Positions 37,741 to 40,024 of a DNA stretch of 64,000 bases are shown piece by piece. The notes under the pieces are model-generated. The model was not told where the DNA came from and ran no database searches. It saw nothing but the letters and a program-made list of their open reading frames with translations. Within the stretch, counting starts at the first letter, position 1. Every line of letters begins with the position of its first letter. The translations under genes and the position numbers were made by a program. The stretch is from a virus. The DNA lies in IMG/VR virus record IMGVR_UViG_3300030107_002332, one strand, 5' to 3'.

Positions 37741-38640
37741 CTATTTAGTCACGTACCCAATGACCCCATCTATCTCTATTTCAGGTGGAACAATTAGTAC
37801 AAAACCAATACCCATATTAAATACTCTTCTCATTTCTTCCTCTTCTATCTCACCTGCTTCTTTTATCTTATTAAAGATCTCTGGCCTCTCCCAAGAAGTC
37901 CAATCAATATTAGCCTTTAATCCTTCAGGTAATATACGTGGAACATTCTCAATCAATCCACCACCTGTGATATGTGCCATACCTACAATAGGTATCTCAT
38001 CCAGTAGATCTTTAACCTGTGGCCAATAGATTGTAGTTGGTGTAAGTAACTCAGGAGTATCCTTATAATAAATCTTATGTCTCCATAACATATCATTGAT
38101 AAGACTGTATCCATTACTATGCAGTCCACTACTGGGTAATCCTACTATCTTATCACCTTCTTTAATTAGACTACCATTAATAATTTCATTCTGTTCTACA
38201 ACACCTGTACAAAATCCTGCAAGATCATAGTCTTTAGCAAACCTACCATGTTCAGCAGTCTCACCACCTAAGAGATGTACCATTGCCAGATCACATCCCT
38301 TGATAATACCTTCCATTATCTGATCTGCTTTATCATCTAACTTCTCACAAGAAATATAATCTAAGAAGTATAATGGATGTGCTCCACAACAAATCACATC
38401 ATTAACACACATAGCAACAAGATCTATACCAATGGTTGTCCAATCATTGAACACCTGTGCCATATTAATTTTAGTACCTACACCATCAGTACCAGAAACT
38501 AATACAGGTTTCTCATAACCAGATGGTAATGGTATCATTCCATTAAACCCACCAATGTGAGGAAGTTTTGATTTTAATCTTTGAACAAATGCATTACCAG
38601 CATCTATATCAACACCAGAGTCTTTATAATTCATAATCAA
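37741..38640 (-). CDS. purM: Phosphoribosylformylglycinamidine cyclo-ligase (AIR synthase)
   Basis: YKDSGVDI, GTDGVGTK, GGETAEH, SSGLHSNG, HITGGG, FNMGIG. Confidence 0.95.
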   Translation of the reverse strand: MIMNYKDSGVDIDAGNAFVQRLKSKLPHIGGFNGMIPLPSGYEKPVLVSGTDGVGTKINMAQVFNDWTTIGIDLVAMCVNDVICCGAHPLYFLDYISCEKLDDKADQIMEGIIKGCDLAMVHLLGGETAEHGRFAKDYDLAGFCTGVVEQNEIINGSLIKEGDKIVGLPSSGLHSNGYSLINDMLWRHKIYYKDTPELLTPTTIYWPQVKDLLDEIPIVGMAHITGGGLIENVPRILPEGLKANIDWTSWERPEIFNKIKEAGEIEEEEMRRVFNMGIGFVLIVPPEIEIDGVIGYVTK

Positions 38641-39072: not shown

Positions 39073-39160
39073 CTGTGAGGGATGGAGTCGAACCATCAAG
39101 TCCCGCAAGCAGAACAGCAGGGAAACAGCCTGCCACGTTTACCAGTTTCGTCACCTCACA
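39073..39160 (-). tRNA. Atypical 88-nt tRNA, anticodon GUU (Asn), long class II variable arm, U37, no encoded CCA
   Basis: Acceptor TGTGAGG/CCTCACA + G73; D arm ACG/CGT with GG; anticodon stem GCAGG/CCTGC, loop CT-GTT-TC (GTT at 39126-39124); V arm GTTCTG/CGGGAC; T arm GATGG-TTCGACT-CCATC. Confidence 0.9.
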
Positions 39161-39168
39161 TTGAAGCC

Positions 39169-39966
39169 CTATTTAAGGGCTGAGATTATACGGGTCATTC
39201 CGATCCCTCCACCACTTCTGGGGAAGAAGTCAAAGTCAAGGAACTGTTCAAGTTCTTGCTCTACCCTACTTCTACCAAACTTGTCTATAATCAGTTGAGC
39301 ATAACCTCCATCTGATATAGTATAGAATGTATCACGCATTTGATCCTTGTCGGTACTCCTTTCAGCACTACCGATAGTTTCCATGCCACCTAATATAACG
39401 TCAATCTTTTTACTTGTCCCATCAGTATTTCTTGCCATATTCCAGAATGGTGATGTCCACTCAGGGAAGTCAGTAATCATACCTCTACCAATTTGTTTCT
39501 CATGATCATGGTCTATCTCCTTAGTCTTAAATGCCTCAGCCCATGATGCATATTTTTTAATGTTATATTCTTCCAATGGTACACCTAACCATTGACACAA
39601 TTCTATCTCCATTTCTTTTAGTTCTTCTACACCACCCTTCATTTCAAATTCAAACATGGGGAAGATAGTCTCATGTCTACCTGGTACAGGATTTGGTTCT
39701 GCTCTATAAGATGTAGAGACACAGAAAAACCCTTCTTCTGAAGGGTTAGAAAGTAATTCATGTTCAAGCCACATCTGACCTGTCTGTGGTAGTGGCCAGA
39801 TATTACCACCATAATTATAACTTGCTACGGTTTCTGGATCTTCACAAGCAGCAAGGATGCTTAATCTATTTTGTGTGTGAACTTCCAGAAAGTTTTTAGA
39901 CAAAAAAAACGACCTCAATAGGCCGACAGCATCTGAAAATTCTCTTGGATCAATCAAACTCGTCAT
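39169..39966 (-). CDS. Stand-alone class II aminoacyl-tRNA-synthetase catalytic domain (AsnRS/AspRS-like, no anticodon-binding domain)
   Basis: 265 aa from MTSLIDPREF; motif 2 STSYRAEPNPVPGRHETIFPMFEFE; ETIGSAER; motif 3 PRSGGGIGMTRI. Confidence 0.85.
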   Translation of the reverse strand: MTSLIDPREFSDAVGLLRSFFLSKNFLEVHTQNRLSILAACEDPETVASYNYGGNIWPLPQTGQMWLEHELLSNPSEEGFFCVSTSYRAEPNPVPGRHETIFPMFEFEMKGGVEELKEMEIELCQWLGVPLEEYNIKKYASWAEAFKTKEIDHDHEKQIGRGMITDFPEWTSPFWNMARNTDGTSKKIDVILGGMETIGSAERSTDKDQMRDTFYTISDGGYAQLIIDKFGRSRVEQELEQFLDFDFFPRSGGGIGMTRIISALK

Positions 39967-39986: not shown

Positions 39987-39992
39987 TATTTA
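39987..39992 (-). promoter_or_regulatory. Late promoter TAAATA for the synthetase-like gene and tRNA
   Basis: Between the g23 terminator and ATG 39966. Confidence 0.65.
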
Positions 39993-39994
39993 GC

Positions 39995-40024
39995 AAAAAA
40001 AAGAGACCCCTCTGGGGTCTCTTT
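39995..40024 (-). terminator. Rho-independent terminator of g23
   Basis: AAAGAGACCCC-3nt-GGGGTCTCTTT hairpin with poly-U on minus strand. Confidence 0.85.

Follow-up and report, generated by a model that had tools for sequence, protein, structure and literature searches.

The variable loop of a canonical tRNA-Asn is expected to be about five nucleotides long. To our knowledge, long variable arms are found among bacterial tRNAs only in those for Leu, Ser, Tyr, and Sec, and essentially all decoding tRNAs carry U33 and a purine at position 37. The bacterial Asn identity set consists of the anticodon GUU and the discriminator base G73, which serve both asparaginyl-tRNA synthetase (AsnRS) and the non-discriminating form of aspartyl-tRNA synthetase (AspRS) (PMC9976931). 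The U1–A72 pair is the determinant by which the bacterial GatCAB enzyme selects Asp-tRNA-Asn (PMC9976931, PMC2811023). Here, a tRNA gene that places all of these marks on a body with a long variable arm, and that carries U37, is described from the viral record IMGVR_UViG_3300030107_002332, of which a stretch of 64,000 nucleotides (the window) was analyzed. The gene lies at 39073–39160 on the minus strand, directly behind a gene for a protein resembling the catalytic core of a class IIb aminoacyl-tRNA synthetase. The two genes are found together at about 190 phage loci and probably form a dedicated, undescribed module. A comparative study from 2010 lists the core gene only, without analysis (PMC3037559), and no paper analyzing the pair was found.

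Asparagine marks on a leucine-type body

The window belongs to a T4-like cyanomyovirus, the closest isolate of which is P-SSM7 (about 83%), and its 64 kb contain this single tRNA, which ARAGORN calls as Asn (GTT). All coordinates given below for the window refer to the minus strand. The acceptor stem has 7 base pairs, UGUGAGG/CCUCACA, and is followed by U8 and G9; its 3′ strand, CCUCACA plus G73, occupies 39073–39080, with G73 at 39073 and with A72 paired to U1 at 39160, as seen in the pair counts of the family. The D stem comprises 3 base pairs and the D loop 11 nucleotides. The anticodon stem, GCAGG/CCUGC, has 5 base pairs and closes the loop CUGUUUC (39122–39128), in which G34-U35-U36 occupy 39126–39124 and a U is placed at position 37 (39123). 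The variable arm of 19 nucleotides (39098–39116) folds into a stem of 6 base pairs, including two G·U pairs, with the loop CUUG, and the T stem has 5 base pairs; CCA is not encoded after G73.

The same gene, annotated as tRNA-Asn, is present in the phages P-SSM7, P-SSM2, and P-SSM5, where the CUGUUU part of the loop is kept and changes in the stems are compensatory. The sequence GUUU is found at all 83 phage loci that were chosen only by similarity of the neighboring protein (77 viral loci and 6 from a genome collection). An alignment of 88 distinct sequences was used to analyze covariation. The parser that built it demanded pairing in three of the five stems and left the D and V stems unconstrained, and these two still pair at 100 and 97.7%, respectively. 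Overall, 99.6% of the cells are paired, and changes on both sides are seen in 21 of the 24 stem pairs. The observed covariation score was reached by none of 500 shuffles, and controls in which the pairing partner was slid along pair only to 42–51%. The invariant columns are U1–A72 and G73 (each 88/88), U8 and G9, A14 and A15, G18 and G19, U48, and G34-U35-U36-U37. Elsewhere in the anticodon loop, position 32 is C or U, position 33 is U or, in 12 of the 88 sequences, C, and position 38 is A or C. The variable arm ranges from 12 to 38 nucleotides among the phage relatives, the arms of 30–38 nucleotides being found in a distant clade with a core at 67–68% identity. A CCA directly after G73 is encoded in 14 of the 88 sequences, including those of this clade.

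The initial annotation, made from the window alone, had noted fully paired stems without signs of decay and an Asn anticodon followed by a pyrimidine, and this structural description is confirmed. No homologue with GCU or A37 was seen; because GUU and U37 are kept in all of them, the combination is a selected feature and not an error. A private mutation, a sequencing error, and a decayed pseudogene are excluded by the conservation and the covariation. The tRNA is thus real and strongly conserved, and it breaks tRNA rules. It has the general features of a cloverleaf, namely four arms with covariation, a T loop of the form UUCRAnY, G18 and G19, U8, and A14, and departs from the usual pattern at positions 33 and 37. 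The window copy scores below the threshold of the general tRNA model of Rfam, RF00005, which gives 49.5–52.8 bits for the copies of P-SSM7, P-SSM2, and contig L212.

Other assignments were considered and set aside. A tRNA-Sec, the only Rfam match that appeared for the window copy, is ruled out by a score of 22.8 bits in RF01852 (threshold 47), by an acceptor/T helix of 7/5 rather than 8/5 (13 base pairs), and by the anticodon GUU in place of UCA. Many relatives could form an acceptor stem of 8 base pairs through a U(−1)·G73 pair, but position −1 of the window copy is an A. An alternative register with the anticodon UUU, as in a Lys call of ARAGORN at locus L054, would require a 3+1 loop, with the stems staying in place. 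Calls of four-base anticodons (gttt, tttc) are artifacts of ARAGORN on copies with long variable arms.

The body on which the Asn marks are placed is of the Leu type, as the initial annotation had proposed for the core of the tRNA. A15–U48 does not vary, and tRNA-Leu genes rank first among the ordinary tRNAs of nine bacterial genomes in searches with R1, a covariance model of the family. Similar to bacterial tRNA-Leu, the phage tRNA has a long variable arm, a 3-base-pair D stem, A15–U48, and the same placement of G18G19; unlike tRNA-Leu, it has G73 instead of the essential A73, U1–A72, a non-Leu anticodon, and U37. It is therefore a chimera of Asn marks on a Leu-type body in which A37 is replaced by U. 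As a separate observation, P-SSM7 also encodes a tRNA-Leu(UAA) (L001:2454–2526, minus strand) that is 73 nucleotides long and has a 5-nucleotide variable loop and A73; this class I-shaped tRNA-Leu shares a cluster with the class II-shaped tRNA-Asn.

The likeness of the acceptor stem to Escherichia coli tRNA-Ser(GCU), which the initial annotation had pointed out, does not hold for the family, because positions 2–7 covary freely; a BLAST search of the tRNA against E. coli genomes gave no match. In the proposal that accompanied it, the tRNA is charged by host seryl-tRNA synthetase (SerRS), which would recognize the long arm and G73, and Ser is then incorporated at Asn codons. In E. coli tRNA-Leu, C2–G71 is an antideterminant against SerRS, and tRNA-Ser has a Levitt pair other than A15–U48. 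The long arm and G73 are indeed present, and a change from A73 to G73 can switch Leu identity to Ser (PMC9976931). However, bacterial tRNA-Ser conserves G1–C72 and G2–C71 (PMC9976931), neither of which is conserved in the phage tRNA, and the phage tRNA also lacks a Ser anticodon. Pair 1–72 is invariably U–A, pair 2–71 is G–C in 68, C–G in 18, and U–A in 2 sequences, pair 11–24 is U–A in 24 variants, and the Levitt pair A15–U48 is of the tRNA-Leu type (PMC9976931). A proteome-wide recoding of Asn to Ser would, moreover, come at a high cost, and no other finding suggests it, which leaves serylation extremely improbable. Two other suggestions of the initial annotation, that the tRNA is orthogonal to the host synthetases and that it is poorly used by ribosomes, are both compatible with the present findings.

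Coupling to a synthetase-like core in phages

At least 596 viral contigs carry a gene for the core protein. The best 80 of these were inspected downstream of the gene, and 77 of them have at least 110 nucleotides there; in all 77, which were picked by protein similarity alone, about 10–20 nucleotides separate the stop codon of the core gene from the tRNA behind it. Six further contigs from the genome collection that were anchored on the protein, phage-like and binned into metagenome-assembled genomes, also carry the tRNA; the clade at 67–68% identity is among them. The reverse test started from a pattern consisting of the D arm and the GUUU loop, which gave 118 viral loci. The core gene lies directly upstream in 105 of these, with protein identities of 48–90%, and 96 nucleotides upstream in one; of the remainder, 10 have the match within 113 nucleotides of the end of the contig, and the other 2 arose by chance and have no tRNA. 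Together, the two directions show coupling at about 190 phage loci in two clades, one of which encodes CCA, and the genomic neighborhood of the pair differs between phages.

Two groups of contigs with core homologues deserve separate mention. Contigs L211–L215 and L228, which carry the pair, are binned as Poseidoniia archaea, Flavobacteriaceae, Bacteroidetes, Legionellales, and Neomarinimicrobiota, and they are probably mis-binned phage DNA. In the Legionellales-binned contig L215, which belongs to the CCA-encoding clade, a permuted transfer-messenger RNA of the alphaproteobacterial type (L215:2559–2932, minus strand; 125.7 bits) lies directly upstream of the pair. This neighbor suggests hosts other than cyanobacteria, namely Alphaproteobacteria, possibly SAR11. 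Two huge phages of 484–735 kb (L291 and L292; LR756501 and LR756508) encode a core homologue with 45–47% identity and have no tRNA within 2.5 kb.

In the window, the core gene (39169–39966) encodes a protein of 265 residues that is known as "tRNA ligase," T4-GC 194, or PHROG 29758, the last being of unknown function, and its stop codon lies 8 nucleotides upstream of the tRNA. The Pfam family tRNA-synt_2 matches it at 8.5e-13, and the label in the ESM Atlas is only "tRNA ligase, viruses." A profile of the family searched against the PDB finds AsnRS best (6e-14) and AspRS next, with EpmA and the archaeal asparagine synthetase AS-AR at about 1e-6. The AlphaFold model of the core has a predicted local distance difference test (pLDDT) score of 95.8, and Foldseek matches it about equally to AspRS, AsnRS, LysRS, and AS-AR without separating them. 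The class II catalytic core is present with motifs 2 and 3. The N-terminal anticodon-binding domain with its oligonucleotide/oligosaccharide-binding (OB) fold is absent, and the protein begins at the catalytic core. The curated NCBIfam equivalogs for AsnRS and AspRS give 15–23 bits against cut-offs of 343–414. Within the active site, the core sequences QTGQMWLE and FEFE align with QSSQLYLE and VEAE of AsnRS, and the Leu and Glu of these motifs would stand at the positions of Lys198 and Asp233 of AspRS. The Arg of the motif GSAER, conserved across the core family, is presumably the substrate-binding Arg of AspRS and AsnRS. By these alignments, the pocket of the core looks AsnRS-like.

The arrangement of the two genes is consistent with a common transcript. 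A terminator of g23 (40024–40000) is followed by a TAAATA box resembling a late promoter (39992–39987), and this region (39987–40024), the putative promoter role of which is suggested by its sequence, lies ahead of the core gene; no remnant of a tRNA was found between g23 and the core gene. At the other end, a hairpin, AGCCCU/AGGGCU (39165–39181), overlaps the stop codon of the core gene and ends 4 nucleotides before the 5′ end of the tRNA. It has no U-tract, and no terminator was called between the core gene and the tRNA. The hairpin is conserved in related phages with compensatory variants (AGCCCU/AGGGCU, GGCACU/AGUGCC, and AUCCCUG/UAGGGAU) and may form a protective 3′ end of the mRNA once RNase P has released the tRNA. 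Downstream of the tRNA in the window, two small open reading frames are followed by a PurM-like gene of the AIR synthase family (37741–38640), which places the pair among auxiliary genes of nucleotide metabolism in this phage.

Strict coupling at about 190 phage loci and the agreement between an AsnRS-like core and an Asn-marked tRNA indicate a likely functional connection of the two in phages. The CCA encoded in 14 sequences and the covarying hairpin between the two genes, where no terminator was called, add to the case. Our favored, though tentative, explanation is that the tRNA and the core gene constitute a dedicated asparagine-type tRNA/enzyme cassette of phages. The two genes would be transcribed together from the late-type promoter, and the tRNA would be cut out, leaving an mRNA with a protective 3′ hairpin. 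The released RNA would be a functional, CCA-tailed, and aminoacylatable tRNA of the Asn type on its tRNA-Leu-like class II body. Because it has no anticodon-binding domain, the core would act on the acceptor end, where G73 and U1–A72 are invariant. As its pocket is AsnRS-like, it would most likely load asparagine and, less likely, act on Asp that the tRNA carries beforehand. The long variable arm, together with U37, which makes the N6-threonylcarbamoyladenosine (t6A) modification impossible, would separate the phage tRNA from host tRNA-Asn for the host enzymes. At the same time, host GatCAB could, owing to U1–A72, still use any form charged with Asp, and GUU would let the tRNA read AAC and AAU.

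The distribution among cultured phages, which also counts in favor of the cassette, bears on another explanation, in which the loop, with U37 and sometimes C33, and the shape of the tRNA serve counter-defense by resisting or decoying a host anticodon nuclease, and the tRNA has a charging enzyme of its own since recognition by host enzymes is spoiled. Among 50,697 records of isolate phages, the tRNA and the core are found only in P-SSM2, P-SSM5, and P-SSM7, all of which were isolated on NATL strains of Prochlorococcus, and P-SSM2 has no other tRNA, so that in this phage the tRNA is not part of a codon-compensation set. Changes in the anticodon loops of phage tRNAs have been proposed as a means of escaping tRNA nucleases, and colicin E5 is a nuclease that targets tRNA-Asn (PMC10264068). 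Against this, no nuclease targeting tRNA-Asn is known in these hosts, and G34-U35, which is read by enzymes of the colicin E5 type, is retained. The same design also occurs in the second phage clade, the hosts of which are probably alphaproteobacterial, and on chromosomes of Chitinophagales (see below). We judge counter-defense to be very unlikely.

Homologues and tRNA-like genes in cells

The core family comprises 649 clusters at 50% identity and at least 8,000 at 90% identity. Cellular homologues with 43–60% identity are found on long chromosomal contigs of Candidate Phyla Radiation (CPR) bacteria, DPANN archaea, Chlamydiota, Dependentiae, Bacteroidota, Alphaproteobacteria, and Myxococcota. 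These homologues, together with several features of the phage pair, speak against the cassette described above. No odd tRNA was found beside the cellular homologues, and the tRNA pattern gave no match anywhere in ten enzyme-carrying genomes. At more than 15 cellular loci, which come from several phyla, pyrD and/or pyrE-pyrF lie within 3 kb of the core gene, and in one cellular lineage the core is fused to a dihydroorotate dehydrogenase domain (DHO_dh::core); the pyrimidine-linked or fused loci are L264, L253, L249, L232, L224, L218–L222, L227, L267, L277, L279, and L246 and L208–L210. The position of the core in, or its fusion to, genes of pyrimidine synthesis points to a metabolic ligase. A canonical AsnRS is also present in 7 of the 9 enzyme-carrying genomes tested. 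The phage and cellular forms have about 90 near-invariant residues in common, including all active-site motifs, and the phage clade, rather than having acquired a basic surface, is the more acidic one (mean isoelectric point 4.7 against 5.4). With a common active site and a cellular core that occurs without the tRNA, the chemistry of the enzyme would be the same in cells and phages, and the tRNA would not be needed for it. In the phage protein itself, the motif-2 loop is devoid of the basic residues of AsnRS. On the side of the tRNA, the marks GUU, G73, and U1–A72 are equally needed by host AsnRS, non-discriminating AspRS, and GatCAB (PMC9976931, PMC2811023), and efficient decoding is argued against by U37, by C33 in 12 variants, and by the variable arms of 30–38 nucleotides.

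Most of these observations are accommodated if the two genes have independent functions, that is, if the tRNA is an extra tRNA-Asn served entirely by host AsnRS or by non-discriminating AspRS and then GatCAB, and if the core acts in aspartate metabolism as a ligase that forms amides independently of tRNA, either similar to AsnA and AS-AR or of the pyrimidine pathway. The invariant marks of the tRNA are then exactly those that the host enzymes read, the active site is unchanged relative to cellular homologues that lack the tRNA, and AS-AR and AsnA provide precedents of stand-alone class IIb cores. A connection of the core family with aspartate and pyrimidine metabolism is possible. When carbamoyl-aspartate is closed to the ring of dihydroorotate, an amide is formed by the same chemistry that asparagine synthetase A uses, and on account of this shared chemistry the core might be an ATP-dependent analogue of dihydroorotase. 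In five pyrimidine-linked genomes, PyrC-like matches are only sub-threshold (198–256 bits for pyrC_multi, with a cut-off of 279), and pyrC_dimer gave no match.

Other evidence is harder to reconcile with independence. Neither gene is found alone at the roughly 190 phage loci, although neighboring tRNAs and genes come and go, and U37, C33, and the long arm are left unexplained. Should the core serve pyrimidine synthesis, chance, at about 1 in 45, would have to account for an AsnRS-like enzyme standing next to an Asn-type tRNA. As for an asparagine synthetase, the NCBIfam model NF005055 for asparagine synthetase A, which has a cut-off of 389 bits, scores the core at 19.6 bits, and TIGR00669 (asnA) is not among its NCBIfam matches. 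The pattern of presence and absence is mixed, with AsnB co-occurring with the core family in 5 of 9 enzyme-carrying genomes and AsnA found in none of 5 checked. Host AsnRS, GatCAB, and tRNA-Asn were judged from a cyanobacterial control genome, that of Synechococcus elongatus, in which AsnRS and GatB are present and AsnA and AsnB are absent. In such a host, a module for the supply of asparagine would make sense, which fits the dedicated cassette and independent functions alike. On balance, independent functions are a strong rival of the cassette, although a somewhat less likely one.

Two observations on cellular loci stand apart from the pyrimidine genes. In Woesearchaeota and Pacearchaeota (L257, L268, L271, and L272), the core gene directly follows a gene for a LigT-type 2H phosphoesterase of the 2′–5′ RNA ligase family, a neighbor of the RNA-repair type that is unlike the pyrimidine genes. 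In one bacterial metagenome-assembled genome, an ordinary 73-nucleotide tRNA-Asn(GUU) (L284:4057–4129) lies about 250 nucleotides downstream of a core gene with 43% identity; as this occurs once among about 70 cellular loci, it may be due to chance.

A possible cellular counterpart of the phage tRNA was found in Chitinophagales. In two enzyme-carrying genomes of this order, the best matches of the R1 model are unannotated tRNA-like genes of 115–139 nucleotides. Similar to the phage tRNA, they have U1–A72, G73, and the same D arm; their anticodon loop is YUGUCUC, which combines GUC with U37, and they have a structured insert of 50–90 nucleotides at the variable arm. The loci, found with the R1 model or the pattern, are L293:1501–1639, L299:1501–1615, and L305–L316, some with two tandem copies, and both ARAGORN and Rfam miss them. 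The RNA is present in 15 of 121 sampled Chitinophagales genomes (20 copies), and a reversed-pattern control gave none. The core enzyme is encoded in 3 of the 121 genomes, 2 of which also have the RNA (p = 0.04); the other 13 genomes with the RNA have no enzyme, a further point against the dedicated cassette. A gene for a regulator of the Lrp/AsnC family adjoins the RNA at 10 of 13 loci, divergently oriented in both of the loci that were compared (L307 and L309), and GatB is encoded in 15 of 15 RNA-carrying genomes and in 80 of the 106 others (p = 0.02).

From these findings, two related proposals can be formulated. In the first, the RNAs of phages and Chitinophagales would be one undescribed class of tRNA-like aminoacyl carriers of the Asx type (aspartate or asparagine) that serve mainly, in place of ordinary decoding, a tRNA-dependent metabolic step, such as the conversion of Asp to Asn by GatCAB or by the core; in bacteria the class would perhaps be under Lrp/AsnC control, and in marine phages it would form a mobile cassette with the enzyme. 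We consider this broader proposal unlikely. In the second, the phage RNA with GUU and U37 and the Chitinophagales RNA with GUC and U37 would belong to a wider tRNA-like family that acts off the ribosome as an Asx carrier or regulator, for example as a scaffold for the Asp-to-Asn conversion or as a sensor of Asx charging. The shared marks of the Chitinophagales RNA, the adjoining regulator, and the presence of GatB all fit such a role, U33 is not conserved in the phage family, which also has U37 and some very long arms, and U1–A72 on a translating GUC tRNA would give Asp-to-Asn errors. Against it, the homology between the phage and Chitinophagales RNAs consists of the shared marks and a score of 70 bits, few bits above that of tRNA-Leu, the association with GatB is modest and comes from one sampled order, and the invariant GUU of the phages fits decoding. 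A mainly off-ribosome role appears quite unlikely.

Comparison with known systems

A phage family under clear purifying selection here breaks the rules for purine 37, U33, and the variable arm together, and, irrespective of which explanation holds, the labels "tRNA-Asn" and "tRNA ligase" in P-SSM2 and P-SSM7 hide something unexplained. If the core charges the tRNA, the two would be a naturally occurring synthetase/tRNA pair that is blind to the anticodon, as well as a minimal class II system and possible source of orthogonal pairs, by which abundant ocean phages would bring their own asparagine supply to translation. If it does not, the tRNA-shaped RNA would have a non-decoding role linked to Asx metabolism.

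The canonical tRNA-Asn has GUU, G73, and U1–A72 in common with the phage tRNA, as is evident from the ordinary tRNA-Asn of L284 (loop CUGUUAA, 73 nucleotides), which has each of them. The phage tRNA differs in its variable arm of 12–38 nucleotides, its 3-base-pair D stem, A15–U48, U37 in place of A37 (the site of t6A), C33 in some lineages, and the synthetase-like gene to which it is always linked. The same three marks form the scaffold on which Asp is turned to Asn in the indirect pathway, by the transamidosome of non-discriminating AspRS and GatCAB (PMC2811023, PMC9976931); there, the substrate is an ordinary tRNA-Asn, whereas here the body is of class II.

The main similarity between the core and AS-AR, AsnA, and EpmA is that all are stand-alone class IIb cores, the latter three of about 290–330 residues, and AS-AR and EpmA are among the matches of the core. 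These matches are weaker than those of AsnRS and AspRS (about 1e-6 against 6e-14), and the core scores far below the cut-off of the asparagine synthetase A model. We know of no linkage of AS-AR, AsnA, or EpmA to a tRNA gene. GluQRS (YadB) is likewise a synthetase paralogue without an anticodon-binding domain and has as its substrate one specific tRNA of the GUN (queuosine) group. In contrast to the phage core, it is a class I enzyme that uses the normal tRNA-Asp at Q34 and has no special tRNA gene linked to it. The dedicated non-canonical pairs PylRS with tRNA-Pyl and SepRS with tRNA-Cys, and likewise the allo-tRNAs, combine an odd tRNA architecture with an enzyme for which the usual reading of the anticodon is dispensable. 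Those systems involve stop or reassigned codons or a new amino acid, whereas the anticodon of the phage tRNA is a sense anticodon for Asn, and nothing indicates a new amino acid.

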